IMG/VR virus record: IMGVR_UViG_3300027659_000024 | Direction: 5' to 3' (one strand) | From: a virus | Taxonomy: Duplodnaviria; Heunggongvirae; Uroviricota; Caudoviricetes | Length of the DNA: 64,000 nt | In this document: positions 1,748 to 50,085 of the stretch, in pieces | Layout of the letters: each line of letters begins with the position of its first letter | Position numbering within the stretch: position 1 is the first letter of the stretch | The notes under the pieces: generated by a model | What the model saw: only the letters and a program-made list of their open reading frames with translations | What the model was told of the DNA's origin: nothing | The model's database searches: none | Made by a program: the position numbers and the translations under genes

Positions 1748-2140
1748 ATGAATAAAACCACTTATGTCACTTCTGTTAAAAAATCACTTAATGAAGAACT
1801 AAAGCAGGCTACTTTTATAGTACTAGAACCTGATGTAGTTGACGCACATGGTGATATATATGATGCAGAAGAAATAAGAAAAGCAAAAGAATCTTTCAAT
1901 AAGAGTTGTATGAGAGCAAATCTCTTGCATCTAGTCAATAATACAGATGCTTTTGAAATCATCGAAAGTTATATTTCCCCAGCAGACATGATAATCAATA
2001 ACCAAGCTGTACTTAAAGGCTCTTGGCTTTGCTCTTTACAGTTCAAAGATGAAGAGATTTGGGAAGGTGTTAAGGATGGAACATATAATGGTGTTTCAGT
2101 TGGTTGCAAAGCGTTTGTTGAGCGTTTGGAGGAAAACTAA
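1748..2140 (+). CDS. hypothetical head-module protein
   Basis: SD AAAGGTGGA. Preceded by promoter TTGACT-N17-TGaTATAAT. Confidence 0.6.
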   Translation: MNKTTYVTSVKKSLNEELKQATFIVLEPDVVDAHGDIYDAEEIRKAKESFNKSCMRANLLHLVNNTDAFEIIESYISPADMIINNQAVLKGSWLCSLQFKDEEIWEGVKDGTYNGVSVGCKAFVERLEEN

Positions 2141-3303
2141 TGAGTCAAGATACTCAAAACAAAACAAGAAAAGCTAAAAGAAAGTTAAGTGATTTTGATT
2201 TCAGTTCTCAAGACTCGCATATCGCTTTAGTTGGCCCTGTAGTCGGTGGCCCCGCAAATGAACGCACTACTCTAGTGTTCAAAGCTAATAAAAAATTCTC
2301 CGAAGAGACTATCCAAAAGATGCAGCAGATCCAAGTAACAATGGAACTTCCTGATTTTCTCAGAAAATTTTTTGATCTTTGGTACGAGGATGCAGAAATT
2401 CTTGCTCGGCTGATGGGTTATACACCATCAGAGCAAACTGAAGAATACGAAGAATTTGATTACGAAGATTATCTAGAAGAGAAATTACAGTCTTACACTA
2501 TTATTAAATCTCTAAAAGATAGTAAAAACTTGATCAACTCTCTTGCTGAATTAGATGAATCAGAATATCTCACTCTTTTACAAGACCAAGAGAAAATTGA
2601 AAAATACATGAAAGACTCAAAAGAGTCTAAAGAATCTACAAAGGGTAAACGCCCTGCTAGAAAAAGCTCAACTGAGGTTAACTCTGACGTTGGTGCTGAC
2701 ACTGAAGCCGAAGCAATTGCTAAAGCTGAAAATCCTGCTAATAAGTTTGTACTTTACAAACAAAAAAGCGATGGGGGTTGGGAACCAACCAAAACTAAAG
2801 CTGAACTCGTGTTGAGTAAAGCCGTTGAAAACAAAGTTAACTTAGAGGAAAACATGACTGATAAAGTTACCGATTCTCAAGCTGCTAAGCAAACTGTAGA
2901 AGTTGTAGAGAAGTCTGCACTTGAAGCAATTGAAAAAGCTGCCAAAGAAGAAAAAGAAACCTTGGAAAAAGCTCTCGCTAAACAGACTGAAGATTTGCAA
3001 AAAGCTTTGGCTATTGTAGCAGAATTTGAAAAAGAAAAGAAAGAGGCAATTACTAAATCTAGATTTGCTGCTGTAAAAGATGCCGTTAAAGATGAAGCAA
3101 AAGCAGAAGTTCTGTTTAAAGCTTTAAATCTGGTTGAAGATGCTGTCGAATTTGAGACTGTAGTTAAAGCCCTGAAAGATATGTCCGATCTTGCTGAAAC
3201 AGGCGAATTGTTCGTAGAAAAAGGTGTAAGCGTAGAAGGTGAAGGTACTAAAGAAAGTGCTGTAGCAAAACTTCTGAAAGCCCAAGCTACTAAAAATAAA
3301 TAA
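2140..3303 (+). CDS. scaffolding protein (putative)
   Basis: 387 aa, highly acidic, E/K/A-rich and predicted coiled-coil. Lies immediately upstream of the major capsid gene. Start overlaps the previous stop (TAATG). Confidence 0.55.
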   Translation: MSQDTQNKTRKAKRKLSDFDFSSQDSHIALVGPVVGGPANERTTLVFKANKKFSEETIQKMQQIQVTMELPDFLRKFFDLWYEDAEILARLMGYTPSEQTEEYEEFDYEDYLEEKLQSYTIIKSLKDSKNLINSLAELDESEYLTLLQDQEKIEKYMKDSKESKESTKGKRPARKSSTEVNSDVGADTEAEAIAKAENPANKFVLYKQKSDGGWEPTKTKAELVLSKAVENKVNLEENMTDKVTDSQAAKQTVEVVEKSALEAIEKAAKEEKETLEKALAKQTEDLQKALAIVAEFEKEKKEAITKSRFAAVKDAVKDEAKAEVLFKALNLVEDAVEFETVVKALKDMSDLAETGELFVEKGVSVEGEGTKESAVAKLLKAQATKNK

Positions 3304-4896: not shown

Positions 4897-5901
4897 ATGA
4901 ATAAAAACATTATTAAAAAGTCTAATGCTTTCGTCTTTACACAAGATCAATTAGACTTTATTTGTGAAAAATATTTTGAAAATGGCAACACAAAGTTTTG
5001 TGAGAAGTATTTTGAAGTAAGTAGGTACGTTATTCTCAATGCGATTAGGAAAAATAACAAAAAAATTATAAAAATATCTGATAGAAAATTCTATCGTGGT
5101 GTAAAAATTGACAGAACCTGTTTTTCTGATTTTTCAAAAGAACCTGATTCATATTTTTACGGATTACTTTTGGCAGACGGAAATCTCAGCAAGAGAGGTA
5201 ACATGGTTTCTATAAGTTTGGATCACAAAGACAAAGATATATTAATTAAATTTAAATCTTGGTTAAAATCAAACAACACTTTCAAACATAGATCCTATAC
5301 CACCAGAGAAGGTGGCAAGCAGAGCAACGAAGTCTCTTTTTGTTTTGGAGACAAAATAATATCTGACAATCTCAGAAAACAAGGTTTCGAACCAAACAAG
5401 ACAACAAGAGAAAAACTTCCAAAGTTTTTAAAAAACAGTAAAGAGTCAGAAAGACACTTTTGGAGGGGTTTTGTTGACGGCGATGGACATATTGCACAAA
5501 GACACAGTTCAATTTTAGAACTTTGTGGAAGTTTAGAAATCATGCAGGGATTTACTTCTTTTTGTTCAGAACTACTGAAAAAAGAAATAAAAACATTCAG
5601 AGAAGACTGTACAAGTAAAAACTTTTACAGGGTAGCTTACTCTGGTGAAGATGCCAGAAAGATTGTACAATATTTGTATTCAGATTGTGAGTATTTTTTA
5701 GAAAGAAAACAAACATTTGTACAGATATTTAAAGAGTTCGGTGATAAAGTTTTAGTTAAAAAGTGTGGATTACCTAAGTCGGAAAAGTACATAAGAAAAC
5801 AAAAGAACAATTATACTCTTCAGGTAAATGGAGTTTATTTAGGATCTTTTAAATCTTTAGATGAAGCTAGGTGTTCTAGAGATAATTATTTAAAAAGTTA
5901 A
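4897..5901 (+). CDS. LAGLIDADG-family homing endonuclease (free-standing)
   Basis: Two LAGLIDADG-like motifs, YFYGLLLADGNL and FWRGFVDGDGHI. Inserted between capsid and connector genes. Confidence 0.65.
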   Translation: MNKNIIKKSNAFVFTQDQLDFICEKYFENGNTKFCEKYFEVSRYVILNAIRKNNKKIIKISDRKFYRGVKIDRTCFSDFSKEPDSYFYGLLLADGNLSKRGNMVSISLDHKDKDILIKFKSWLKSNNTFKHRSYTTREGGKQSNEVSFCFGDKIISDNLRKQGFEPNKTTREKLPKFLKNSKESERHFWRGFVDGDGHIAQRHSSILELCGSLEIMQGFTSFCSELLKKEIKTFREDCTSKNFYRVAYSGEDARKIVQYLYSDCEYFLERKQTFVQIFKEFGDKVLVKKCGLPKSEKYIRKQKNNYTLQVNGVYLGSFKSLDEARCSRDNYLKS

Positions 5902-8978: not shown

Positions 8979-9665
8979 ATGAATAGAATACAACTTAGAA
9001 GATTTATAAAATCTAAATCAGAATATTCAAACTATGTTTATGGTTTGTATGATCAATTTGGGAATATTTTTTATGTTGGCGTGGGAACTAAATTTAGAGT
9101 TTGTCAACATTTTTCATTTTCACAAAAATCTAAAAAACCAAACATGAGACTGAATATAATTAGAAGTATTCACTCTCAAGGTTTTCAAATTTCTGCTGAA
9201 ATACTTGGTTTTTTCTATTATAGAAAAGAAGCTTTGCTACTAGAAAGAAAATTAATATCTGAGTTAGGTAGAAAAGACATCTCTACTGGGGTACTTTCAA
9301 ATTTGACAGACGGTGGGGAAGGTACACTAAGTGTGATAAAAACACTTTCAGAAGAAACAAAAAGAAAATTATCAGAAATTAATAAAGGTAAAGTTCTTAG
9401 TCCCGAAGTTAGAAAAAATATTTCTGAAGGTCATAAGAATCTTTTTAGAAGTAAAAAGCACGCAGAAAACCTCAGTAAAGCAAACTCCAAAATTAAGATA
9501 GTGTGTTTGGAAAACGATATTGTGTTTAATAATTTAAGAGAAGCAGAAGAATGGCTCAAATCACTTGGTCATTCAAAAGCTGACAGAAGAAATGTGCACA
9601 GATCAATAAAAACTAAAATGCGACATTGTGGTCATACTTTTGACTATTACAACCCCATTGGTTAA
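8979..9665 (+). CDS. GIY-YIG homing endonuclease with NUMOD3-like repeats
   Basis: N-terminal YVYGLYDQFGNIFYVGVG (GIY...YIG). C-terminal repeats ETKRKLSEINKGK and EVRKNISEGHK. Inserted between the major tail and chaperone genes. Confidence 0.75.
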   Translation: MNRIQLRRFIKSKSEYSNYVYGLYDQFGNIFYVGVGTKFRVCQHFSFSQKSKKPNMRLNIIRSIHSQGFQISAEILGFFYYRKEALLLERKLISELGRKDISTGVLSNLTDGGEGTLSVIKTLSEETKRKLSEINKGKVLSPEVRKNISEGHKNLFRSKKHAENLSKANSKIKIVCLENDIVFNNLREAEEWLKSLGHSKADRRNVHRSIKTKMRHCGHTFDYYNPIG

Positions 9666-24759: not shown

Positions 24760-25725
24760 TTAATAACCTGTACTGTAAGAACCTATCATGGAACCTTTGG
24801 AATAGTTAGTAGTGTTGACCTCGAAGAAGTTTTCCATACCTGAACTGGATGTAACCCATTCTAACCAATCAAAAGGATTCTCTACATTGTATTCCTTTTT
24901 TAGACCCAGTTGTTCACCTCTGTAGTCAGCTACAGCACGAATATATTGTTTCGTCTCTTCACGGGTGATTTTCAATTTTTCCTGTGACGCTTTAGATAGG
25001 TGGCTAAAAGCTGCATCAATGAAAGCATCTTCAATTTCAATGCATTTTCTACGAGTTTCATACAGTTCTTTTTTAAATTCATCGTTTACGATTCTCGGGT
25101 GCTCGTTTAAAAAGATTCTAAACACCGTAGCGTTACCTTCAACGTGCATTGATTCGTCACGAATAGACCACAAGTTAACATCACACATTCCGGGCAACCA
25201 ACCGATACGACTGTAGTTCAGAAGCATTGCAAACAAAGCAAACAGACCTACACCTTCAATAAACACTTGTTTACCTAAACTTAACGCAGTATCACGGTAT
25301 GAACCATGAGCAAGAGTTCCCATGAACTCAAGTTTTTCTCTGGCTTCTTTGTGCTGTCTAAATTCTTCGTAAAAGTCTTTACCAAAACCTAATGTATCGT
25401 TAAGCATTGCATATGCTCTCTGATGAACACCTTCTCGGTTAGCATAACTTCCAAACAAGTTTCTGGCTTCGTTGTTCTTAAAAACAGGAATTAAATGCTC
25501 GTAGTAATCTTTCGCTACTTCTTTATCCCCTTCTGTAAACACTCGAAGAATTGTTTTGATGAAGGCTTTGTTTTCATCGTCAATGATACCTGATTGCCAC
25601 TGCACTAAATCATCTTTCAGAGATACTTCCCAAGTACCCCAATGAACTTTCTCGTGCTTTTCTACCAACTCAACCAATTGCGGGTAAGTTGGGTAATACG
25701 TTTTTGATGTTTCAATAATTGACAT
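24760..25725 (-). CDS. nrdB: ribonucleotide reductase class I small subunit
   Basis: Diiron-site style motifs. Start set at MSIIET (ATG at 25725) with SD AGGAG overlapping the nrdA stop. Confidence 0.85.
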   Translation of the reverse strand: MSIIETSKTYYPTYPQLVELVEKHEKVHWGTWEVSLKDDLVQWQSGIIDDENKAFIKTILRVFTEGDKEVAKDYYEHLIPVFKNNEARNLFGSYANREGVHQRAYAMLNDTLGFGKDFYEEFRQHKEAREKLEFMGTLAHGSYRDTALSLGKQVFIEGVGLFALFAMLLNYSRIGWLPGMCDVNLWSIRDESMHVEGNATVFRIFLNEHPRIVNDEFKKELYETRRKCIEIEDAFIDAAFSHLSKASQEKLKITREETKQYIRAVADYRGEQLGLKKEYNVENPFDWLEWVTSSSGMENFFEVNTTNYSKGSMIGSYSTGY

Positions 25726-25736
25726 TTTTACTCCTA

Positions 25737-27596
25737 TTATGCTTGGCAGCTTACGCACTCGCCTTCGTCTTCTTGTTTCTTCCAATCCTGCATTGCTTGA
25801 CGATGAATAGTCTTTACTGTATCAGTATTACCAGCAGAACCAGTTCGCATGTAGTATAGGCTCTTCAAAACTTTACTTCTCAATGCCTTTAGATGCACAG
25901 AGTTTATATAACCACGATCTGTTCCCGGTAAGAAGAAAAGATTCAAAGATTGCGCTTGACAAATGTAAACTTGTCTATCTTCAGCGTGTTGAATAACCCA
26001 ATGTTGATCTATTTCAAAAGCTGTCTTAAATACATTCCTTTCGTGATCTGACAATTGTTCAATCCACTGCACAGAACCATCGTAATCTTTAATGATCTTT
26101 AGCCAAATTTCAGGTGTATTCAAACCATATTTTTCAAGCACAGGCTCCAAATACTTGTTCTTAACCAACATAATACCCGCACGAGTTTTCTGTGAATAAG
26201 CATTTTTCATTAGCGGTTCAAGTGCAGGTGAAGTATTGCACAAGATACTGCTGTTAGCGTTAGGAGCAGGGGCTAGAAGGTGGCTGTTGCGCATACCTGA
26301 ACCCTTCATATCATCTGGTTCACCACGAATGATTGCAAGCTCTTTTGAAGCCTCTACCGCTTGTGATTTGATGTGACTCCAAATCTTATGGTTCCATTGT
26401 ACAGCAGAATTAAAACCACCACCTTCAAATGGGATATTTTTCTTCATCAAGAAATTTGCCCAACCCATTCCACCAATACCAATCGCTCTTTCCTTGGTTG
26501 CACTAAATACCGCACGATTTAATTCGGTTGGAGCATAATCAATGAACCATTGTAATATATTATCCAAGAACTTAGTTAAATCTTTTACTAAATTAGAGTC
26601 TTTCCATTCTTCAAAGTTCTCTAAATTGAGAGAGGCTAGACAACAAACTGCTGTTCTTTCGTCATTATTAGGTAATGATATTTCTGTACACAGATTGCTC
26701 CCGTTACTTTTTAAACCTAGACGTTTTTGAAATTCATTCATTTGTTCGTTTACATTATCAATGAACCAAGCAAAGGGTTCACCAGTTTCTTCTCTTACAC
26801 TTAAGAATAACTCCCAAATTTCTCTAGCTTTAATTCTTTCTTTTACTTCCATTGTGTGTGGACAAAATAGATCGTAGTAGTCGTCTTTGTCTACAGCTTC
26901 AGCAAAGACACGAGTGAAGCAAACCCCGTGATGAACGCCTGCGCGATTAATAATCTTTCGGTTGTGATCCCCACCACTAGGTGTACGCATCTGGATAAAC
27001 TCTTTAATATCGGGGTGATGTACACTGACATATACGGCGCAAGCACCTCTTCGAGTTCTGCCTTGTTTGTAATAACCCATATCCCCGTCTACAGTCTTTA
27101 TAAAAGGAACAGGGCCGGGTGCTTTATCCGTGGCTGCACGAATTAAAGACTGAAGACTTGTGCCACCACCAGCCAAAGATAGAACTTTAATCTCAGCAGA
27201 TGCCTTTAGTTGTGATTCAATCGTATCTCCTAGAAAAGTCAAGAAGCAACTAATTGGCATACCTTTTGGTTGTTCACCTTGCCAACAAGACTTTCTGAAC
27301 TCCCCATTACCTTCTTTCCAAAACTCAGGATCACCATAGTTTACACCAGCAATCCAATTACCCTCCACTGCATTAGCCAAAGGGGGTGATGATGGAAACC
27401 AATCACCTTTTGAAGCATGATCGTAAAGTCGTTGAGCCATTTCTACATCACCGTAGCTGAAGTTATTTACAACTTTTGCAAGAGCATGTTGAGCACTCTG
27501 GTCTTTTGAGTAATACCTCTCAAGCATCGAAAGACCTTCTTCGCTGAATCTTTTATCACGAGATTCATTAATATTAATACCATAAATATTTGTCAT
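25737..27596 (-). CDS. nrdA: ribonucleotide reductase class I large subunit (no obvious ATP-cone)
   Basis: 619 aa, active-site region NLCTEI...CCLASLNL. Confidence 0.85.
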   Translation of the reverse strand: MTNIYGININESRDKRFSEEGLSMLERYYSKDQSAQHALAKVVNNFSYGDVEMAQRLYDHASKGDWFPSSPPLANAVEGNWIAGVNYGDPEFWKEGNGEFRKSCWQGEQPKGMPISCFLTFLGDTIESQLKASAEIKVLSLAGGGTSLQSLIRAATDKAPGPVPFIKTVDGDMGYYKQGRTRRGACAVYVSVHHPDIKEFIQMRTPSGGDHNRKIINRAGVHHGVCFTRVFAEAVDKDDYYDLFCPHTMEVKERIKAREIWELFLSVREETGEPFAWFIDNVNEQMNEFQKRLGLKSNGSNLCTEISLPNNDERTAVCCLASLNLENFEEWKDSNLVKDLTKFLDNILQWFIDYAPTELNRAVFSATKERAIGIGGMGWANFLMKKNIPFEGGGFNSAVQWNHKIWSHIKSQAVEASKELAIIRGEPDDMKGSGMRNSHLLAPAPNANSSILCNTSPALEPLMKNAYSQKTRAGIMLVKNKYLEPVLEKYGLNTPEIWLKIIKDYDGSVQWIEQLSDHERNVFKTAFEIDQHWVIQHAEDRQVYICQAQSLNLFFLPGTDRGYINSVHLKALRSKVLKSLYYMRTGSAGNTDTVKTIHRQAMQDWKKQEDEGECVSCQA

Positions 27597-27638
27597 TGTT
27601 ATTATTATCCTTATTTAACTTCTTTTATTTTTTTTATC

Positions 27639-27965
27639 TTACAACTTGTGGTATTTGTAAGGATCTAGGTCTTTTACCATTTGACTACCACTTGATTCGT
27701 TTTTAGCTTCTCGACTACAGTACCCCGAATCAATCCATTCTTTATCTAGTCTTTCTGTTAAAACCCATCTGTCACATTGTACAACTTCATTTAATCGGTT
27801 TCTGTGTAGTAGATTTTCTTGACACTCGAAAGGTTTTTGAATATCACCACCTAGTTCCCACAAATATTGGAGTAGTTTAGATTTGTTTTCTTTTAGGTAC
27901 TCTGAAGTAATCTCTGGGTGCACCTTCTTCAATTCTGATAAACTTACAACTGCAATTGCTACCAT
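27639..27965 (-). CDS. hypothetical protein
   Basis: Strong SD AAGGAGGA. Confidence 0.55.
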   Translation of the reverse strand: MVAIAVVSLSELKKVHPEITSEYLKENKSKLLQYLWELGGDIQKPFECQENLLHRNRLNEVVQCDRWVLTERLDKEWIDSGYCSREAKNESSGSQMVKDLDPYKYHKL

Positions 27966-27992
27966 ATAAATCCTCCTTGTTTTTTTTTGTGT

Positions 27993-28664
27993 TTATTTTG
28001 AATTGTTGAAAATACTCGGGAAGTGTTCTGCTGTAGTTTTCCAAATTTTCTCAGCCAAATCCCTGTGTTCTTTTTGTGTACTTTCGTGCATTCTGACTTC
28101 ACAATAATGAATCAAAGATCTTATATTTGCGTTCAAGTACAATTTACTCATTGTGTTACCTTCTGGTAAAACAGACCTAGCTTGCTCTTTAGCAATACCA
28201 TGCTCCACAGCCCATCTATAAGCTTCTGCTGCTGTTTCAATAACTTTCTTTTGATATTGTTCCCAAAATGCAGCAATTTGAGGGTCTGTACACTCTGTAC
28301 TGTTTTGTCGGTTTTTATTGTCTTGCATTCGAGATTCACGACAAACAAAATACAAATCTTTAGTAGGATCAGCATATCTTTGACTAAACTCTTGTGGTAC
28401 AATTGAAGAGTGTCTTAAAAGTTGCCTACCAATGTCTCGTGTTGTTTCAACCTCAAGTTGAATATTTACCATTCCGAAAATACTCCAATGAGCATTTCTC
28501 TTACAGTAGTCCAGTAATCCTTTCGCTGTTTTCATGTTCATCTGATTAGAGGGATTGCTTACTCTAGCCATATATACAATCAATTCTTCTGGTGAATCAA
28601 CTCCTTCGACAAGTGATTTTGTTACTCCCACTGCTTTTACTTTTTGATGTTCGTATTTACTCAA
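27993..28664 (-). CDS. thyX: flavin-dependent thymidylate synthase
   Basis: ThyX signature region RHSSIVPQEFSQRY (RHR-x7-S-like). 223 aa. Confidence 0.75.
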   Translation of the reverse strand: MSKYEHQKVKAVGVTKSLVEGVDSPEELIVYMARVSNPSNQMNMKTAKGLLDYCKRNAHWSIFGMVNIQLEVETTRDIGRQLLRHSSIVPQEFSQRYADPTKDLYFVCRESRMQDNKNRQNSTECTDPQIAAFWEQYQKKVIETAAEAYRWAVEHGIAKEQARSVLPEGNTMSKLYLNANIRSLIHYCEVRMHESTQKEHRDLAEKIWKTTAEHFPSIFNNSK

Positions 28665-28834
28665 TTATCTCCCCTTTAAAATAATACCACCTCGAATTTT
28701 TAAAAACACTTAATTCAATTGGATAAACTGCATTGCCGAAATCATCTTGAAAGTTCCCTAAGAGAATTGTGTTCATTTACCCCTCCTTCACACTATGTCT
28801 TTCTGTATAACCTGCACCAAGAGAATTCATTTCT

Positions 28835-29416
28835 TTAGTTATCTTTAGCACGCTGTCTCTCCACCAAGAACAATAAACCACAAATAGCATGCGACAAATG
28901 AGGCTCCCCGGAGTCGTTGTCAATTAAATCTCCAGACAAGTGAGACATGATGTGTCGCAATACGCTTGCTTCATATCTTTCAGTTTCAACTTTACTGTAG
29001 TTTGTTCTACCGTATCGTTTGCTTCCTAATTCTAACACTTTAACAACAGATTCTACTGAGTTAGGTAGATCTTTTAAAAGTAAAGTATAATCTAATTTAC
29101 CTTGGTCGAATTTAATTCCTCCTGCACTGTTTACTATGACTTCTGTATCTTTTACAAAAACTTCATCTGATTTGGTAATGTTTTCTTCAGTTTGTTTAAT
29201 AACTTCTCTTACAGTCTGAGGTAAGGCATCTTCTTTTACTAGTTCAAGGTCGTCTTCTTTAAAAAAATAACAATCAAAAGCTAAAGAATAAGAAGATAAA
29301 TCTATACAATATTCACCATAAAATGTATCAAAATCTTTAATAAAACCAACACAGTTACGCAAAAAACCTTTACTACCTAGAATTTTTACTTTATCTCCTA
29401 CTTTGAATTTGCTCAT
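28835..29416 (-). CDS. dATP/dGTP pyrophosphohydrolase-like domain with N-terminal KVGD (KOW/SH3-like) domain
   Basis: GKLDYTLL...VLELGSKRYGRTNY resembles the phage dNTP diphosphohydrolase N-domain family. N-terminal FKVGDKVKI motif is shared with several small ORFs. Confidence 0.45.
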   Translation of the reverse strand: MSKFKVGDKVKILGSKGFLRNCVGFIKDFDTFYGEYCIDLSSYSLAFDCYFFKEDDLELVKEDALPQTVREVIKQTEENITKSDEVFVKDTEVIVNSAGGIKFDQGKLDYTLLLKDLPNSVESVVKVLELGSKRYGRTNYSKVETERYEASVLRHIMSHLSGDLIDNDSGEPHLSHAICGLLFLVERQRAKDN

Positions 29417-29426
29417 TTCCCCTCCA

Positions 29427-29945
29427 TCAAGTCGGTAGACCGTTCACATAAGAACTCAGGTCTACGTTTTTGTAATTACACGGCTTACGAATCTTTCCAT
29501 TTTTATCTTTAAATACGTAAACACCAAACGTCTTGTTATAATGAACGTCAATTTCTACGCCTTCAGACTTGTATTTTTCAACTGTAACTTCAATGATGTT
29601 CCTTGCATTTGGATTAGTAACTTGAACGTACTTTGTAAGATTGTTTGCACATACATCCAAAAGTGCCTCTCTTGCTCGAAGAGATTCATCTACCATCTGC
29701 ATAGCACCAAAAGCTGTTACTACAAGATCGTCTACCCCATCGAGAGTCTCTTTGACATCATCTTCTTCGATACCTTTTTTGAATTCATCCAACTCTGATT
29801 GGATGATCTTTACTTGGTTCAGTAGTCGTTCTTTTAAAGTTTGTGTAGTGTTATTTCCGATGTTGTCTGCAATCAGATTAAATGTTTTGACTGAATTGTA
29901 TGCTTCTCCGATCAGTCCATCAATGTGTGTTGTACCCTGTGTCAT
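29427..29945 (-). CDS. MazG-like nucleotide pyrophosphohydrolase
   Basis: All-alpha EExxE/D-rich region LDGVDDLVVTAFGAMQM. 172 aa. Confidence 0.55.
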   Translation of the reverse strand: MTQGTTHIDGLIGEAYNSVKTFNLIADNIGNNTTQTLKERLLNQVKIIQSELDEFKKGIEEDDVKETLDGVDDLVVTAFGAMQMVDESLRAREALLDVCANNLTKYVQVTNPNARNIIEVTVEKYKSEGVEIDVHYNKTFGVYVFKDKNGKIRKPCNYKNVDLSSYVNGLPT

Positions 29946-30989: not shown

Positions 30990-31472
30990 ATGAAATACAT
31001 TGAAGGTGATTTGATTGAACTGTTTGAGCAAGGTGAGTTCGATGTACTTGTCCACGGTTGTAATTGCAGAAAAAAAATGAAAAGCGGTATTGCTGCTCAG
31101 ATTGTCGAAAAGTATCCTCCGGTGAATGACGCAGATCTACTCTCTAATGACAACGCAGAAGAGAAACTGGGGTCTTTTGAGTGTGTTCTAATATCTGAAA
31201 AAGATTGTAAATCTATAATCAACGCTTACACTCAATTGAATTACGGCAGAGATAAAAACATTGTTTACGTTAGTTATCCCGCTGTCAGATCAGTCTTTAG
31301 AGCGATAACTAGTTATGCTTTGAATTTTCAAAAAGCTTACGGTTACAAGTACCGATTTGGTATTCCTAAAATTGGTTGTGGTCTAGCAAACGGAGATTGG
31401 GATATTGTAAGTAGAATCATTGCAGAAGAAACCATAGGTTTAGATATAACTGTTGTTGAGTATAAAAAATAA
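30990..31472 (+). CDS. macro-domain protein (ADP-ribose binding or processing, putative)
   Basis: IEGDLIEL...DVLVHGCNC...KSGIAAQI...FGIPKIGCGLANGDW loosely follows the macro-domain pattern GDIT..DAIVNAAN..GGGVxGAI..AFPAISTG. Confidence 0.45.
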   Translation: MKYIEGDLIELFEQGEFDVLVHGCNCRKKMKSGIAAQIVEKYPPVNDADLLSNDNAEEKLGSFECVLISEKDCKSIINAYTQLNYGRDKNIVYVSYPAVRSVFRAITSYALNFQKAYGYKYRFGIPKIGCGLANGDWDIVSRIIAEETIGLDITVVEYKK

Positions 31473-39392: not shown

Positions 39393-39432
39393 AGCTCTAG
39401 TTCTGGCGTAAAGTCAGTCTAGGGCTTTTTTT
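39393..39432 (+). terminator. rho-independent terminator
   Basis: AGCTCTAG...CTAGGGCT stem followed by TTTTTTT. Confidence 0.55.
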
Positions 39433-39449
39433 ATTTATAAGGAGAAAAG

Positions 39450-39701
39450 ATGCTTCCGTTTGATGAAGACATGTCTATACAAGAAAAATTACAGTGGAGC
39501 ACATACCAATTAAAAGTCTGGGAAAAACTTATGGTGCAATTGACAAGAGCAGTAAATTCTGGCAACATGGCAAAAGTGGGGGTGATATATAATTTATTTT
39601 ACGCTTACGGTGATAGTATTTCTTCACAAGAGTTCGAGTTTGAATTAGAGAAGTTACTGCAACAGAAAGAGATATTTGACACAGCAAGAGATTTATTATA
39701 G
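39450..39701 (+). CDS. hypothetical protein
   Basis: SD TAAGGAGAAAAG. Confidence 0.5.
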   Translation: MLPFDEDMSIQEKLQWSTYQLKVWEKLMVQLTRAVNSGNMAKVGVIYNLFYAYGDSISSQEFEFELEKLLQQKEIFDTARDLL

Positions 39702-39710
39702 GAGAAAATA

Positions 39711-40523
39711 ATGATTTATGTAGAAGGTGCAGATGTAGAGTATTTGAAGTTCAACGCAGGAGAACCACACGTTAAGGTTACAAATATCTCTAGTTACACA
39801 AACGTAGAGTGGGTGTTTGAAAATTTTGAAGAATTTATGAATCTTGCCATGATCGTTGATGTTCTAAACAGAAACAAGTCAAGTGTAGCATTGACTATGA
39901 GGTATGTTCCTTTTGCTAGACAAGACAGGGCTACAACTTCTAGTCAACCTTTCTCGTTAGAAGTTTTTTGTAATATGCTTAAAACACTGAAAATTGACGA
40001 ACTTTATTTCCATGATGTTCACAGTGAGGTGTTTGAAAAATTAATGAAAGGTTCTAAATTTGACATTCTTCCGTTTAAACAAGTTGAATGTTTTCAGGAA
40101 ACCCTCGATGACTTTTCTCAAGCGGCTGAAACATATGACTGTATTATTTCACCGGACAAAGGTGCTGTCAACAAGGCAATAGAAATTGCTATTCTTGAAG
40201 ATGTTCCGTTGGTTGAAGCAACAAAAACTCGTGATCCAGCTACAGGTGCTTTATCGAATCCTCAGATTGATTTTGGTGATCTAGAAGTTGGACGTGCAAT
40301 TATTGTAGATGATATATTAGATTTTGGGGGCACGTTTGTTCAGTTAGCTAGGGCAATTAAAGAACAAAAACCAGATGTCAAACTAGACCTTTATGTCACA
40401 CATGGTTTATTTGGTGGGGGTATTGAAAAATACAAAGGTTTGTTTGAAAACATTTATTGTTATAACATCATGAATAAGGAAATTAAAAGTGGAGATTTAC
40501 TTAACTTGTCAGGATTGTCCTGA
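39711..40523 (+). CDS. ribose-phosphate pyrophosphokinase family protein (Prs-like; possible ADPR-PP synthetase of an NAD+ reconstitution pathway)
   Basis: RYVPFARQDRA (like PYyGYARQDR), FHDVHS (like DLHA), IISPDKGAV, AIIVDDILDFGGT (PRPP-binding-loop style). 270 aa, shorter than cellular Prs. Confidence 0.75.
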   Translation: MIYVEGADVEYLKFNAGEPHVKVTNISSYTNVEWVFENFEEFMNLAMIVDVLNRNKSSVALTMRYVPFARQDRATTSSQPFSLEVFCNMLKTLKIDELYFHDVHSEVFEKLMKGSKFDILPFKQVECFQETLDDFSQAAETYDCIISPDKGAVNKAIEIAILEDVPLVEATKTRDPATGALSNPQIDFGDLEVGRAIIVDDILDFGGTFVQLARAIKEQKPDVKLDLYVTHGLFGGGIEKYKGLFENIYCYNIMNKEIKSGDLLNLSGLS

Positions 40524-41058
40524 TTATGAGGTATCAAATTTCGGTGAAGTCAGATCAAAAGATAGGGTTGTAATTAGATCTGACAATGGTGCCCCAATTC
40601 GTTATTATTCTAAATCAGTTAAACAATTTTTAGATAGGAGAGGTTATCCAAGGATTAGAGTAGTTGTAAATAAAGAAAAGAAAAGCTTTAGAGTTCATCG
40701 TCTTGTTGCTAAAGCTTTTTTGGATAATCCAGATAACAAACCGCAAGTCAATCATTTGGATGGAGTTAAGACAAACAACTATGTTGGAAACTTAGAGTGG
40801 GTAACTAACTCAGAGAATCAAATACACGCAAATGAATTAGGTTTAAGAACTTACAAAGAAGCCGAAGAGTCGATAGCCTTCACTGGTAGAGTAAAAGTTC
40901 TTGACATGCAAGGTAACTTTTTGTACTATTTGTCAGGTAACAAACAAATGAAAGACGCAGGTTTTGATTTTAGATTAGTAAGTGCAGTTTGTCTTGGTAA
41001 AAGACATTCCCACAAAGGTCACAAATTTATAAAGGAGAAAAATGATGAAAAGCTTTAA
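40489..41058 (+). CDS. HNH homing endonuclease (NUMOD4 plus HNH_3 type)
   Basis: NFGEVRS and VNHLDGVKTNNYVGNLEWVTNSEN. GTG start overlapping the 3' end of the Prs-like gene. Confidence 0.65.
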   Translation: MEIYLTCQDCPDYEVSNFGEVRSKDRVVIRSDNGAPIRYYSKSVKQFLDRRGYPRIRVVVNKEKKSFRVHRLVAKAFLDNPDNKPQVNHLDGVKTNNYVGNLEWVTNSENQIHANELGLRTYKEAEESIAFTGRVKVLDMQGNFLYYLSGNKQMKDAGFDFRLVSAVCLGKRHSHKGHKFIKEKNDEKL

Positions 41059-42553
41059 AATTAACCCAATGATCGCGGTGGATTCATATAAGATTTCACA
41101 CCGCAAAATGTATCCAGAAGGTACTACTGTAGTTTACAGCAACATGACACCTCGTTCTGGTAAACTTCTAAAACGAATTGTTCCTTCTTCAATCTACGAT
41201 GACAAAATGGTTCATTACGGTCTTCAAGGTCTTTTGATGCATTATATTGGTTTGTGGAATGAAAATTTTTTCGGTGTATCTCAGACGGATGCTGTAAGTT
41301 GGTATTCCCGGACTGTACCTCCGTTCGTAGGTGCAACAGAAGTACAGGTAGATCAGGTTGTAGCTTTGCACAAACTAGGGTTTCTACCTTTATTGATTCG
41401 TGGTCTACCTGAAGGTTCGGTAGTACCTTTTAAAGTACCTGTGTTTACTGTAGAAAACACTCTTGACGAATTTTATTGGTTGACAAACTATACAGAAACC
41501 TACTTCAGTAACGAATACTGGAAAGGTGCAACTGTAGCCACAATCGCTCGTTACTACCGAATTCTACTTGAGAAATACGCAGTAGAAACTGGTTGTCCTT
41601 TAGATTTTGTAGACTTCCAAGCTCATGATTTTAGCTGCCGTGGTATGAGTGGTATGCACGATTCTGCTACTTCTGGTTCAGGTCATTTGGTTTACTTCAA
41701 AGGTACTGATACGTTGTTGGCTGTAGATTATGCAAAGTATGCCTATGATGCAGACAAGGAACCTCTGATCGCTTGTAGTGTACCTGCAACAGAACACAGC
41801 GTAATGACTGCTGGTGGTCGTGAAGGTGAGTTTGATTTGTTTAATCGGATTATTACAGAAGTAGTACCCAATGGTATCGTATCGGTAGTCTCTGATTCAT
41901 TTGACTTTTGGAAAGTTATGACAGAGTTTACTGTAAAACTTAAAGATGATATTCTGGCTCGTGGTAAAGATCCGATTACAGGTTTGAGTAAGGTCGTATT
42001 CCGTCCTGACTCAGGGGATCCTGTTAAGATTGTTTGTGGTGATAAGGATGGTAAAACCGAAGCAGAAGTCAAAGGCGCAATCGAATGTCTATGGGATGTA
42101 TTTGGTGGTACAATCAACGAAAAAGGATTCAAGGTGCTCTCAGATCGTGTAGGGTTGATCTACGGTGACAGTATTACTTTAGAACGCGCTGAAGCGATTC
42201 TAGAAGGTCTGAAATCCAAAGGTTTCTGTACAAGTTGTATCGTGTTCGGTGTTGGTAGTTTTACCTATCAGTACATGACTCGTGATACACTGGGTTTAGC
42301 TATCAAAGCTACTTACTGTGAAGTACAAGGAGAAGGTCGAGAAATCTTCAAAGATCCTGCTACAGATGACGGTACAAAGAAGTCATCTAAAGGTTTGCTG
42401 AAAGTAATAAAAGATGGTTCAGGCACACTGCTTTTACAAGATCAGGTTACTTACAACGATACTTTCCAAGGTGAATTGCAAACGGTTTTTTCAGATGGTA
42501 AGTTTGTGAATACGACAGACTTGACAAGTATTCGTGAAATAGCCAAGATTTAA
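41042..42553 (+). CDS. nicotinamide phosphoribosyltransferase family (NAMPT/NadV-like; alternatively a Namat-type enzyme)
   Basis: DSYKISH, FTVENT...YWLTNY, HDFSCRGMS, FKGTDT, VPATEHS, VVSDSFD, RPDSGDP, IYGDS, VFGVGS, FKDPATDDGTKKSSKG. Near full-length collinearity with NAMPT. Confidence 0.85.
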   Translation: MMKSFKINPMIAVDSYKISHRKMYPEGTTVVYSNMTPRSGKLLKRIVPSSIYDDKMVHYGLQGLLMHYIGLWNENFFGVSQTDAVSWYSRTVPPFVGATEVQVDQVVALHKLGFLPLLIRGLPEGSVVPFKVPVFTVENTLDEFYWLTNYTETYFSNEYWKGATVATIARYYRILLEKYAVETGCPLDFVDFQAHDFSCRGMSGMHDSATSGSGHLVYFKGTDTLLAVDYAKYAYDADKEPLIACSVPATEHSVMTAGGREGEFDLFNRIITEVVPNGIVSVVSDSFDFWKVMTEFTVKLKDDILARGKDPITGLSKVVFRPDSGDPVKIVCGDKDGKTEAEVKGAIECLWDVFGGTINEKGFKVLSDRVGLIYGDSITLERAEAILEGLKSKGFCTSCIVFGVGSFTYQYMTRDTLGLAIKATYCEVQGEGREIFKDPATDDGTKKSSKGLLKVIKDGSGTLLLQDQVTYNDTFQGELQTVFSDGKFVNTTDLTSIREIAKI

Positions 42554-42580
42554 TTATTGAAATTAAAAGGAGAATACCGA

Positions 42581-43039
42581 ATGAATTTTTTTAATGAAAC
42601 TGGAGCCTACAGAGATGAAGAAGACGGAGTTCTTCTTAGGAACACTTTCATTTTCCTTCGTGGAGGTGAAATGGGGCTGACTGCACATCTGTACGGAAAC
42701 ACTTCTGTAGGTACACCTCAAGTGTGTTCTCCTTTGCGATCTTACGAAAATCTCGAAGATAAGTTTGTTTTTACAACAAGGAGTTACAACAAATACGTTG
42801 TTTACAAAGATCAAATCAGACCTGCAAACGAAGATTCAATTAATTTTTTAAAAATCTTCTTGACAGATTGGTTAGGTGTAGATAAAGTAATGAAAGTACT
42901 TGATGATTCAGAAGTACCTGAGATTCCTTTTTGGGATAAAGCACCTCACCCTTCAGAAGTACAGATTTACGGAATCAAACAGTATAATTTTGAAGATAAA
43001 TTTAAAGGTTCTAAAAACCCTAAAGGAGACAAATCATGA
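42581..43039 (+). CDS. hypothetical protein
   Basis: SD AAAGGAGAA before ATG 42581. Confidence 0.5.
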   Translation: MNFFNETGAYRDEEDGVLLRNTFIFLRGGEMGLTAHLYGNTSVGTPQVCSPLRSYENLEDKFVFTTRSYNKYVVYKDQIRPANEDSINFLKIFLTDWLGVDKVMKVLDDSEVPEIPFWDKAPHPSEVQIYGIKQYNFEDKFKGSKNPKGDKS

Positions 43040-43147
43040 TGTGGATTTTGCATATTGCAGCAGTGCTTTTCTTTTTACCCGCTTTATTCATAACGATTCC
43101 TGCCCATTTAATTATAAATACGCAGAAGAACAAAGGAGGTTGATTGC

Positions 43148-47117: not shown

Positions 47118-47378
47118 ATGGAGCTTTTTGTGTATAAGTTTCACCATAAGAACAGTAAACTGCACGTTCTTGCAGCACTGAAAGGTTTTGCATATATTTT
47201 AGATGGAATAATTATTTTAATTACATTGGGGTTTTATTTTGGTAGTTTTACCAACTTTGTTTCACACTTGCAGATGAAAGAGTACATTGCCGTACAGAAA
47301 CAAAAAAGCTTAGTACAAAAAAAAAGTAAACATAAAGGAGAAACTTATGCGCAAAATGGCAAGAGTAGTAAAAATTGA
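47118..47378 (+). CDS. small membrane protein
   Basis: SD TAAGGAGATAT. One TM helix. Confidence 0.4.
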   Translation: MELFVYKFHHKNSKLHVLAALKGFAYILDGIIILITLGFYFGSFTNFVSHLQMKEYIAVQKQKSLVQKKSKHKGETYAQNGKSSKN

Positions 47379-48432
47379 TAATGTAATTAAGCACCCGAAC
47401 GCTGATGCTTTGGATTTGTTTTTCATTGGCGGTTGGCAAGTTGTTGCTAAAACTGGAGATTACAAAACTGGAGATTTAGCAATATTTTGCGAAGTCGATT
47501 CATTTGTACCAACAGAAGTTGCACCTTTCTTGACTCGTGAAGGATCAGAACCCAAAGAATACAATGGTATCAAAGGTGAACGTCTGAAAACAATTCGTTT
47601 GCGTGGTGAATTGTCTCAGGGTTTGTTGCTGAGCATCGCTTCGCAACCAAAAGTAGATGTTCGTTTGGGTGAAATTGTTGTGAAGTCTAACAAACAAAAT
47701 TTTAACATGGAGACTCTGATTGATGAAGACGTTTCAGAACTCCTTGGAGTCATCAAATGGGAACGCCCAGAGTTGGGTACTGGTGCTAAACTGGGCGGTA
47801 ATCCTAAAGGTAATTTCCCTAGTGAATTCCCAAAGACAGATCAGGAACGCATCCAGAACCTTTCTCGTAAGCTTGAACAATGGATTGAATCTGGAGAAGA
47901 GTTTGAGGTTACCGAAAAGCTTGAAGGATCGAGCATGACTTGTTATTTGATGCGGGATGGTACTTTTGGTGTATGCTCTCGTAATCTAGATTTGAAACGT
48001 GATAAAAATAATACTTTTTGGTCTACCGCTATTGAGTTTGATGTTGAATCAAAGATGAAAGACCACTTTGGGGAAGTTCCGGAGGTATCTGTAGCTTTGC
48101 AGGGTGAATTGATTGGTCCCGGAATCCAAGGTAATATTTACAAACTAGAAGATTACGAGTTTAGAGTTTTCGACATTGTAGAGGGAGGAGGTAAATACTT
48201 ACTTCCTGAACAACGCAGAAAAATTATTCGGCTGATGGATCTCCCTCATGTCCCAGTGGTTTCAAAAAGCTACCCTGCTCTATCTATGGGAGAAATGTTA
48301 GAGTTTGCTGAGGGCACTACTCAACTTACAACTAAGAAAGCTTCTCGTGAAGGTTTGGTATTTAAAAGCTTGACAAATCCAAATAACTCATTTAAGGTGA
48401 TCAGCAACGAGTATCTTTTGAAACAAAAATAA
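47347..48432 (+). CDS. ATP-dependent RNA ligase-like nucleotidyltransferase fused to N-terminal tRNA-binding (Myf/EMAP-type OB) domain
   Basis: N-terminal VIKHPNADALDLFFIGGWQVVAKTGDYKTGDLAIFCEV...LRGELSQGLLLS (PheT/MetRS tRNA_bind-like). Ligase motif I KLEGSS, motif III-like LQGELIG, motif IV EGLVFK, motif V LLKQK. Confidence 0.6.
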   Translation: MRKMARVVKIDNVIKHPNADALDLFFIGGWQVVAKTGDYKTGDLAIFCEVDSFVPTEVAPFLTREGSEPKEYNGIKGERLKTIRLRGELSQGLLLSIASQPKVDVRLGEIVVKSNKQNFNMETLIDEDVSELLGVIKWERPELGTGAKLGGNPKGNFPSEFPKTDQERIQNLSRKLEQWIESGEEFEVTEKLEGSSMTCYLMRDGTFGVCSRNLDLKRDKNNTFWSTAIEFDVESKMKDHFGEVPEVSVALQGELIGPGIQGNIYKLEDYEFRVFDIVEGGGKYLLPEQRRKIIRLMDLPHVPVVSKSYPALSMGEMLEFAEGTTQLTTKKASREGLVFKSLTNPNNSFKVISNEYLLKQK

Positions 48433-49063: not shown

Positions 49064-49513
49064 GTGATAAACTGTACAAGTTGTGGTACTCTCTTTGAAA
49101 AACCGATGGTCGGTAGAAAGTGTAAACCCTGTATGAATAAAAAACAAAGAGAACTCAGAAAATTAAAAAACAACGAAATAACAAAAAGATATGAGAAAAC
49201 TAAAAAAGGTTACTTAGTTAGGACTTATCGTAACATGTTGAATAGGATTTTGGGAATATTAAAAAGTAAACAGCACATATATAAAGGTTTAGAAATCTTA
49301 TCAAAAGAACAATTCTATAATTTTAGTTTAAATGATGAAAGCTATAACTTGCTTTTTGAAAATTATCAAAAAAATAACTATTGTTTAAAATTTGCACCGT
49401 CAATTGACAGGATAGATTCTGATAAAGGTTACTTACTTGACAACATCAGATGGATCAGTTTTTCAGAAAATAGTTCACTTGGGGCATCATCACATAAAAG
49501 GAGAAACAATTGA
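49064..49513 (+). CDS. zinc-finger protein with degenerate HNH-like C-terminus
   Basis: CTSCG...CKPC. C-terminal IDRIDSDKGYLLDNIRWISFSEN resembles the HNH_3 tail but lacks the catalytic His. Confidence 0.35.
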   Translation: MINCTSCGTLFEKPMVGRKCKPCMNKKQRELRKLKNNEITKRYEKTKKGYLVRTYRNMLNRILGILKSKQHIYKGLEILSKEQFYNFSLNDESYNLLFENYQKNNYCLKFAPSIDRIDSDKGYLLDNIRWISFSENSSLGASSHKRRNN

Positions 49514-50085
49514 AAATAACCGACTTTGAAAAAATCTGGTTCACATCTGATATTCATTTTGGTCACAAAGCTATTTTAGATTTTTGCCCAAATAGGATTA
49601 AAAAATACGGAGTGACGGTTAATGAAATGAATAAGAATATAATTGCAGATTGGAACGAATCTGTTTCACAAAACGATATTGTTTTTGTATTAGGAGACGT
49701 CAGTTTTGCCTCTGTTAATCAGACAGCAGAATATCTATCCCAGTTAAATGGCAACATCCATTTGGTTTATGGCAACCACTGTAGAAAATTTTTAGATAAA
49801 AAGCTTTTTACTGTTTGGTTTAAGTCTATTCAACCATATTTAGATTTACAAATTGGGCAACAGAAGATTGTACTCTGTCATTACCCTATTTATGAATGGG
49901 ATTCTTGTCATTGGGGAGCGTGGCATCTTCACGGGCACCCAACAAAACAAAAAGCTGAAGAGATTCGTGATGAATTTTTTATTCAACGTAAAAAGAAATT
50001 AAAAATACAAAGAGTTGACGGATTTTGGTTTATGTGTAAAAATATAATTTCTAATTTAAAATTCAGGAGAAAAAAAGATGTCTAA
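49510..50085 (+). CDS. calcineurin-like metallophosphoesterase (small, YfcE/lambda-PPase-sized)
   Basis: Motifs SDIHFGH, LGDVSF, YGNHC, LCHYP, HLHGH. Confidence 0.7.
   Translation: MKITDFEKIWFTSDIHFGHKAILDFCPNRIKKYGVTVNEMNKNIIADWNESVSQNDIVFVLGDVSFASVNQTAEYLSQLNGNIHLVYGNHCRKFLDKKLFTVWFKSIQPYLDLQIGQQKIVLCHYPIYEWDSCHWGAWHLHGHPTKQKAEEIRDEFFIQRKKKLKIQRVDGFWFMCKNIISNLKFRRKKDV

Follow-up and report, generated by a model that had tools for sequence, protein, structure and literature searches.

NAD+ reconstitution pathway 1 (NARP1), described in 2024, is a two-enzyme phage system in which Adps takes ADP-ribose (ADPR) plus ATP and forms ADPR pyrophosphate (ADPR-PP), and Namat combines ADPR-PP with nicotinamide to yield NAD+ (bioRxiv 10.1101/2024.02.11.579819). 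It is found in 4.3% of phages, and a Namat gene lies beside 97% of the genes of the Adps clade (Osterman et al., bioRxiv 10.1101/2024.02.11.579819). We analysed a 64,000-nt stretch of the genome of a tailed phage (IMG/VR record IMGVR_UViG_3300027659_000024; hereafter, the window), which carries, between positions 39,711 and 42,553, a Prs-like gene followed by a NAMPT-like gene, with a gene for an HNH homing endonuclease between them. Judging from their sequences, these genes most probably form a NARP1 operon. Gene order (adps, then namat), the two protein families and the phage context are the same as in the NARP1 of Bas63, SPbetaL1, FADO and ICP1 (NrsAB), and adps also stands directly upstream of namat in Av-05 and allfine, as it does in FADO, SPbetaL1 and ICP1. 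Like the characterised systems, the pair combines the SCH motif and catalytic core of Namat with the C-terminal truncation, acceptor residues and pyrophosphate (PP) loop of Adps. Unlike them, it is divergent (27–37% identity for Adps, 43–52% for Namat), harbours an HNH gene inside the operon and has a longer SCL in Namat. The locus is a divergent further example of the known NARP1 and not a new pathway; as NARP1 is already known in ~4% of sequenced phages, another copy is unsurprising and the addition modest. With it, the range of NARP1 comes to include a divergent uncultivated lineage whose close relatives were found only in metagenome or sequencing-run assemblies.

NARP2, which consists of Nampt and a bifunctional Nmnat/Nudix protein and is known from Vibrio phage KVP40, likewise uses a NAMPT-superfamily enzyme to restore NAD+ from nicotinamide. 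Its Nampt forms a separate clade, and both pathways have been found together in no phage (bioRxiv 10.1101/2024.02.11.579819). The initial annotation of this DNA had preferred NARP1, that is, Adps plus Namat, to a NadV/NatV salvage pair or to the synthesis of phosphoribosyl pyrophosphate (PRPP) and nicotinamide mononucleotide (NMN), and every sequence discriminator that we ran agrees with that choice.

If the two proteins act as their validated homologues do, the pathway would begin once a host defence system (Thoeris, DSR1/2, SIR2-HerA/Nezha, SEFIR, Kongming or similar) has cleaved NAD+ into ADPR and nicotinamide. Adps would then move the beta,gamma-pyrophosphate of ATP onto the 1'' hydroxyl of ADPR, giving ADPR-PP and AMP, and Namat would exchange the pyrophosphate of ADPR-PP for nicotinamide, producing NAD+ directly, with no need for an NMN adenylyltransferase. 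We infer these reactions from the validated homologues; the anti-defence role, too, is a presumed one.

Signatures of Namat and Adps

The product of the second gene matched PF04095 (NAPRTase, 1.5e-43), PF18127 (NAMPT_N), phrog_448 (3.7e-187, 624 bits) and NF006629 (1.5e-160). Its best solved structures were 9w5w and 9w5x (481 bits), the aligned sequence of which matches the SPbetaL1 Namat; mammalian/human NAMPT scored 238 bits, about two-fold lower. We also considered PDB entry 9ke8 as a phage Nampt and rejected it, as tblastn found no phage at 60% identity or more (best 58%), so that it does not come from the phages of the collection; the SPbetaL1 locus came to light in the same search.

The published sequence rule specific to Namat is the 'selectivity clamp', or SCH motif (PMC12774641). 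In the window protein it reads GSFTYQYMTRD (G405-S-F407-T-Y-Q-Y411-M-T-R-D415), which differs from the GSFTYQYNTRD of SPbetaL1 and FADO only by M for N at phi3; the corresponding sequences are GSYTYQYVTRD in ICP1 and GSYTYQYMTRD in the Bas63-like phage allfine. The Nampts that served as NARP2-type references, from RB43 and a KVP40-like Schizotequatrovirus, read GGGLLQ[QE][LV][DT]RD at this site. The rest of the active site is also that of a Namat: D14, Y16, F197, S198, R200, D223 and A249 of the window protein correspond to D13, Y15, F189, S190, R192, D215 and A242 of SPbetaL1, and R321, D323, G375 and D376 to R306, D308, G360 and D361. The histidine of the ATEHS motif is invariant in the Namat/Nampt alignment, and all nicotinamide and ribose-phosphate contacts are conserved.

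Overall similarity agrees with the motif. The protein is 43–52% identical to characterised Namats (48–52% to those of SPbetaL1 and FADO), and 29–33% to the RB43 and KVP40-like Nampts (26–33% across the Nampts of T4-like phages). When 50,697 phage records were searched by tblastn, a block of NARP1-linked proteins scored 262–525 bits and the T4-like Nampts at most 189 bits. Unlike the NARP2 enzymes, the window protein therefore lies outside the KVP40-type group in identity, in score and in lacking GGGLLQ. A neighbour-joining tree of Namats, of which, as support for the basal split is unreliable after re-rooting, we used only the topology around the window sequence, also placed the protein closer to Namat than to Nampt.

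The Prs-like product of the first gene matched PF00156 (Pribosyltran, 5.2e-8), PF13793 (Pribosyltran_N), PF14572 and phrog_619 (1.8e-62, 212 bits), and all its PDB matches were PRPS chains. We did not retain phrog_619 as a discriminator between Adps and Prs, as E. coli Prs itself scores 193 bits on it. The profile hidden Markov model comparison of Prs with Adps already envisaged in the initial annotation was more telling: on TIGR01251, the Prs model, the window protein reached 92.3 bits (2.5e-26) and thus stayed under the cut-off of 113 bits, like the biochemically validated controls ICP1 Adps (98.3 bits) and FADO Adps (96.5 bits). The Av-05 protein scored 146.6 bits and E. coli Prs 422.7 bits on the same model.

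The protein had been called truncated, which is apt with respect to cellular Prs (315 aa), as both N- and C-terminal elements are absent from its 270 aa. In the alignment it lacks the N-terminal strand-helix of Prs and the C-terminal alpha11-alpha12, and it ends (...LNLSGLS) just short of the latter, where E. coli Prs runs on. This is an ordinary length for Adps (269–293 aa among the references) and not that of a damaged gene. Loss of the alpha11-alpha12 filament/regulatory module is a defining signature of the Adps family, the published rules for which also include a conserved acceptor surface, the catalytic Lys185 and a remodelled PP loop for the ATP donor (PMC13586617). The ICP1 residues F18, R87, H121, D161, K185, D212, D213 and D216 are matched in the window protein by F14, R70, H104, D149, K172, D200, D201 and D204. 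Most of these acceptor and catalytic residues are common to Prs as well and would point to an active enzyme, not to its specificity. The PP loop bears on the latter: LDFGGTF in the window protein, SSFGGTF in SPbetaL1 (FGGTF being identical) and DTGGTL in E. coli Prs. The residue equivalent to position 221 is Phe in all seven Adps compared and Leu in E. coli Prs, and at position 217 Adps have F, Y or G where Prs has Thr. The equivalents of F223 and F92 are not conserved in the window protein, nor are they in other validated Adps. Finally, a neighbour-joining tree grouped the protein and its relatives with the validated Adps, and a bootstrap of 100/100 supports their split from the Prs of E. coli and Rickettsiales. 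The Prs model, the truncation, the residues and PP loop, and the tree support that the Prs-like protein behaves as an Adps.

The NARP1 reading is thus based on the SCH motif of Namat, the score gaps, the Adps-type features, the tree and the adjacency of adps and namat. One practical consequence concerns annotation, as the labels 'ribose-phosphate pyrophosphokinase' and 'nicotinate phosphoribosyltransferase' are unsuitable for such genes.

Weighing NARP1 against nicotinamide salvage

Several observations weigh against assigning this pair to NARP1. The deep branches inside the Adps clade were not resolved, and the outgroup of that tree comprised only three cellular Prs. Raw identity does not tell Adps from Prs for the Adps candidate, which shares 27–37% with the reference Adps and 29% with E. 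coli Prs; the published rules, namely the SCH motif of Namat and the truncation and PP loop of Adps, do classify this distant pair. In the Namat candidate, the SCL contains S39-G40-K41-L42 in a loop eight residues longer than that of SPbetaL1, with Lys41-Leu42 where validated Namats have Arg, or Lys followed by Tyr or Trp, and the auxiliary adenine-stacking residue is not evident. The Lys at SCL position 3 fits the rule and position 4 is Leu; another Arg or Tyr of the loop (KRIVPSSIY) might substitute. Among true Namats the SCL is variable in length and sequence, and single SCL mutations cut activity only 1.3–1.7-fold (PMC12774641). Namat enzymes also keep PRPP-dependent NMN synthesis in vitro (PMC12774641). 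Furthermore, the named protein closest to the Namat candidate (54–55% identity) is a NadV encoded on an Acinetobacter chromosome in a prs-nadV-nrtR operon, a type of operon classically annotated as salvaging nicotinamide to NMN (PMC2330246), and a general metabolic-boost role would also suit the neighbouring metabolic genes, among them those for ribonucleotide reductase and ThyX.

These points lend themselves to the alternative that survives best, plain salvage, in which the Prs-like protein would make PRPP, the NAMPT-like protein would make NMN, and NAD+ would be completed either by an enzyme of the host (NadR, NadD or NadM) or by an NMN adenylyltransferase of the phage that was not seen, in a NARP2-like way or as a general boost. 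Both proteins do belong to the Prs and NAMPT superfamilies, the historical salvage operon likewise has its dedicated Prs, the SCL stacking residue is atypical, and the 64-kb window does not cover the whole genome of the phage (the contigs of relatives reach 87 kb). We nevertheless consider plain salvage unlikely. The NAMPT-like protein has the Namat SCH signature and not the GGGLLQ of NARP2-type Nampts, and its scores of 262–525 bits with NARP1-linked proteins contrast with at most 189 bits for the NARP2-type. The Prs-like protein falls under the threshold of the Prs model as validated Adps do, and is devoid of the Prs regulatory and filament elements. In addition, no phage is known with both pathways, and neither pncC nor nadR of the host is needed for the NARP1 of Bas63 to function (Osterman et al., bioRxiv 10.1101/2024.02.11.579819).

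The partner enzymes that salvage would call for did not appear either. The initial annotation had seen no NMN adenylyltransferase, and we found none with Pfam or PHROGs among the scanned ORFs of the window; more generally, NMNAT, CTP_transf_like, Nudix, NadR and PnuC were absent from the scanned open reading frames (ORFs) of at least 150 aa and from those flanking the operon, the scan having covered all but three or four ORFs of that size (2140–3303 by PHROGs only, and a 1700-aa ORF left out). Unlike NARP2, the window thus offers a Prs-like partner and no Nmnat in the ORFs scanned. This absence of partner enzymes from the scanned ORFs of the window argues against both NARP2 and NARP3.

The Acinetobacter relative deserves closer attention. 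The best protein identities in the phage collection were 54% for Namat and 35% for Adps, and a megablast of positions 39,400–43,100 against that collection gave no nucleotide match. The top 'phage' match, Acinetobacter phage MD-2021a (CAKLQF020000015.1), was set aside as a bacterial chromosome by its gene content (AraC, TauE, prs-nadV-nrtR). We also discarded the label 'bifunctional NMNAT/ADP-ribose pyrophosphatase' of the gene beside the Acinetobacter nadV, the sequence of which combines Nudix and winged-helix parts, as in an NrtR-type regulator. The gamma-proteobacterial prs-nadV(-nrtR) operons (Acinetobacter, Shewanella) have the same order, a prs-like gene followed by nadV, as the phage locus; unlike it, the Acinetobacter operon is chromosomal and NrtR-regulated, with a longer Prs paralogue (294 aa). 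Such operons use a second, dedicated prs paralogue, and their repressor NrtR is freed from DNA by ADPR (Rodionov et al. 2008, PMC2330246). A bacterial NARP1 has recently been proposed (PMC12774641). The Acinetobacter operon fits this proposal because its NadV carries a Namat SCH motif (GSFTYNYLTRD), its prs paralogue is dedicated and its NrtR is released by ADPR; the ADPR-induced prs-nadV-nrtR operons of gamma-proteobacteria may therefore be a bacterial NARP1. The resemblance to such an operon also shows why sequence by itself leaves plain salvage some probability.

The HNH gene within the operon

Three intact, co-oriented ORFs span the locus in the ORF listing of the window (Table 1), as the initial annotation had described. 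The motifs that it had quoted can all be read in the translations, namely RYVPFARQDRA and AIIVDDILDFGGT in the first ORF and DSYK, FKGTD, RPDSG and GDS in the third, and the overlap that it had noticed between the HNH ORF and the 3' end of the Prs-like gene amounts to 35 nt. The HNH ORF also overlaps the 5' end of namat, by 17 nt, which had escaped that annotation. The start of namat lies 519 nt past the stop of adps, with the HNH gene alone between them. Each gene has its own ribosome-binding site: AGGAG for adps (8 nt upstream of the ATG) and for namat, and AAGGA for the HNH gene. We found no terminator-like site inside the three genes, and promoter-like matches in this stretch were at background level, which, together with the ORF overlaps, suggests that adps, the HNH gene and namat constitute one transcription unit. 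The two ORFs that flank the operon on the same strand, at 39,450–39,701 (83 aa) and 42,557–43,039 (160 aa), had no Pfam or PHROG match; their location makes other functions linked to NARP1 or to anti-defence conceivable for both.

Table 1. Coordinates of the adps–namat locus and of a possible accessory gene in the window
Feature	Coordinates	Strand	Remarks
adps, Prs-like ADP-ribose pyrophosphokinase candidate, first gene	39711..40523	+	270 aa, ATG start
adps 3' end linked to the HNH gene (co-conversion tract or HNH-linked allele)	40388..40523	+	
HNH homing endonuclease, free-standing, between adps and namat	40489..41058	+	189 aa, GTG start, NUMOD4 + HNH_3
namat, NAMPT-like nicotinamide ADP-ribose transferase candidate, second gene	41042..42553	+	503 aa, ATG start
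Macro-domain protein, candidate unlinked Adpp, tentative accessory outside the operon	30990..31472	+	

Like those of the two enzymes, the family assignment of the middle gene's product is unambiguous, with matches to HNH_3 (1.7e-8, 34.4 bits), NUMOD4 (4.7e-8, 33.6 bits) and phrog_59 (4.7e-42). Its history could be followed in related loci. A protein search with adps returned one 99%-identical protein and about 22 others at 47–61% identity. Metagenome or sequencing-run assemblies, one of them labelled freshwater, were the source of all these proteins, whose lengths were 256–276 aa. We compared nine loci (the window, L005, L006, L009, L010, L011, L012, L013 and L021), of which L005, a JGI contig, matches the window at 99.7% DNA identity. 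In all nine namat follows adps, and the neighbourhood, a replication module with an exonuclease, an endonuclease VII and a DNA polymerase exonuclease subunit, is kept across loci. The HNH gene, by contrast, is polymorphic: it occupies the identical site in five loci (the window, L005, L009, L013 and L021) and is missing from the other four (L006, L010, L011 and L012), in which the two enzyme genes adjoin directly or overlap.

Presence of the HNH gene goes with a particular 3' end of adps. All five HNH-positive alleles end in ...NIMNKEI[KT]SGDL[LV]NLS[GR]L[SP], with the shared tail ...NIMNKEITSGDLVNLSGLS, and the four HNH-negative ones in ...YN[DN]-M/I-x-K-x-K. When the window is compared with L009 or L013, nucleotide identity is highest (80–89%) around the junction of the adps 3' end with the HNH 5' end, against ~55–65% over the body of adps. 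The mosaic is most apparent between the HNH-positive L021 and the HNH-negative L012, in which the first 550 nt of adps are mostly 90–100% identical and identity falls to ~55–65% over the 230 nt that precede the insertion. The adps tail linked to the HNH gene, the peak of identity at the junction and the L021/L012 mosaic form the pattern expected of a mobile free-standing homing endonuclease that has spread with a flanking co-conversion tract, and we interpret the HNH gene as such. It would have invaded the short adps–namat junction, where it would be co-transcribed with its neighbours, and brought along a replacement adps 3' end. It resembles in this the known free-standing homing endonucleases of phages (HNH/NUMOD; T4 Mob, I-HmuI-like), with which it shares NUMOD4 and HNH_3 domains, a short intergenic junction as site, presence/absence polymorphism and a co-conversion signature; unlike theirs, its target is the adps–namat junction of a presumed anti-defence operon. 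A homing endonuclease is thereby shown to occupy this junction repeatedly, with a linked adps 3' allele.

The initial annotation had described the gene pair as split by the HNH gene. The endonuclease is indeed physically located between the two genes, but it disrupts neither; as both enzyme genes are intact, the split is a polymorphic mobile insertion into the operon. A decaying operon, in which the insertion would have truncated or uncoupled adps and namat and left the module non-functional, is for that reason very improbable. The HNH ORF does overlap both its neighbours, and the C-terminal tail of Adps differs between HNH-positive and HNH-negative alleles. Against decay, the ORFs of adps and namat reach the full length of validated homologues, neither is interrupted by a frameshift or an internal stop, the mapped catalytic residues are kept and both genes have strong ribosome-binding sites of their own. 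Moreover, the HNH-positive layout is intact in four further loci, in three of which (L009, L013 and L021) the adps protein differs by ~40% from that of the window; this persistence across divergent adps would reflect purifying selection.

Other selfish nucleases inhabit the same genome. A second free-standing homing endonuclease, with GIY-YIG and NUMOD3, is encoded at 8979–9665 (+) within the structural gene module, and the gene at 4897–5901 belongs to phrog_4645, 'endonuclease'. The related loci also showed that several namat genes, those of L006 (6789–8540), L011 (4293–6020), L012, L013 and L021, encode longer proteins (565–603 aa) with a Cys-rich insertion of ~75 aa after the KIVCG motif. 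This insertion is absent from the window and L009, and sits at approximately the same position as the insertions in the Namats of Felixounavirus and Av-05.

Macro-domain protein and surrounding genes

Some NARP1 operons comprise a third enzyme. In NARP1-AP (Adps-Adpp-Namat; Vibrio phage Gary, Thalassavirus), Adpp turns ADPR-1''-phosphate, the product of the aRES defence, into ADPR for NARP1 (Osterman et al. 2026, bioRxiv 10.64898/2026.01.28.702374). The window also encodes a macro-domain protein of the Poa1p/Tk.4 type, which matched PF01661 (23.9 bits, for a cut-off of 22) and phrog_335, 'phosphatase' (2.4e-49), and whose PDB matches include the ADPR-1''-phosphate phosphatase 6lfu (2.2e-5). 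Over its full length, it is 40% identical to ORF127 of Acinetobacter phage phiAbaA1, encoded directly downstream of Namat, and 29% identical to gp172 of Vibrio phage Pontus, encoded between Adps and Namat, which is the position of Adpp in NARP1-AP (bioRxiv 10.64898/2026.01.28.702374). However, the published detection of NARP1-AP relies on a macro gene at most two genes away from the NARP1 genes (bioRxiv 10.64898/2026.01.28.702374), and the sole macro gene of the window lies 8.2 kb upstream of the operon, in the replication module, so that, unlike in NARP1-AP, a functional link with NARP1 would have to be made at a distance. Macro proteins of this family are, in addition, very widespread among phages (2,728 records matched). 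It is plausible that the macro-domain protein is an unlinked Adpp acting in trans, and such a phosphatase candidate could widen the range of defences countered.

More speculatively, we can imagine, without giving it better than a modest chance, that this phage lineage may run a dispersed pathway of Adpp, Adps and Namat, that the HNH endonuclease may home on the adps 3' end and so drive the replacement of NARP1 alleles between co-infecting phages, and that the long SCL may grip adenine in a different way. If true, the dispersed pathway would be the equivalent of a NARP1-AP acting in trans and could overcome those RES-type defences whose product is ADPR-1''-phosphate, and the HNH gene would be a selfish passenger of an anti-defence operon that it helps to spread. 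That the atypical SCL instead serves to make a different product, some other ADPR-derived or pyridine nucleotide (with nicotinate or another base as acceptor, or NADP-like), is the least credible of all the alternatives: it would suit a loop eight residues longer than that of SPbetaL1 with neither Arg nor an aromatic stacking residue, and the family name of NF006629, 'nicotinate phosphoribosyltransferase', but Namat and NAMPT have the very same nicotinamide-binding residues (F197, D223, R321, Y16' and D14'), and the SCL tolerates both variation and mutation in true Namats.

The rest of the window is that of a tailed phage, with genes for portal, major capsid and tail proteins, DNA polymerase, primase-helicase, ribonucleotide reductase and ThyX. 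Beside ThyX and the class I ribonucleotide reductase, at 28,835–29,416 (-), we found the N-terminal domain of a dATP/dGTP diphosphohydrolase (PF18909, phrog_801); it lies within a minus-strand island at 24,760–29,945 and could be a sign that the nucleotide pool is edited or the DNA modified. On the downstream side of the NARP1 operon, the phage encodes an RNA ligase (PF09414 and the PHA02142 OB-fold; 47,347–48,432, +) and a calcineurin-like metallophosphoesterase (49,510–50,085, +), both of which are kept in relatives (L006) and may form an RNA-repair or other counter-defence module.

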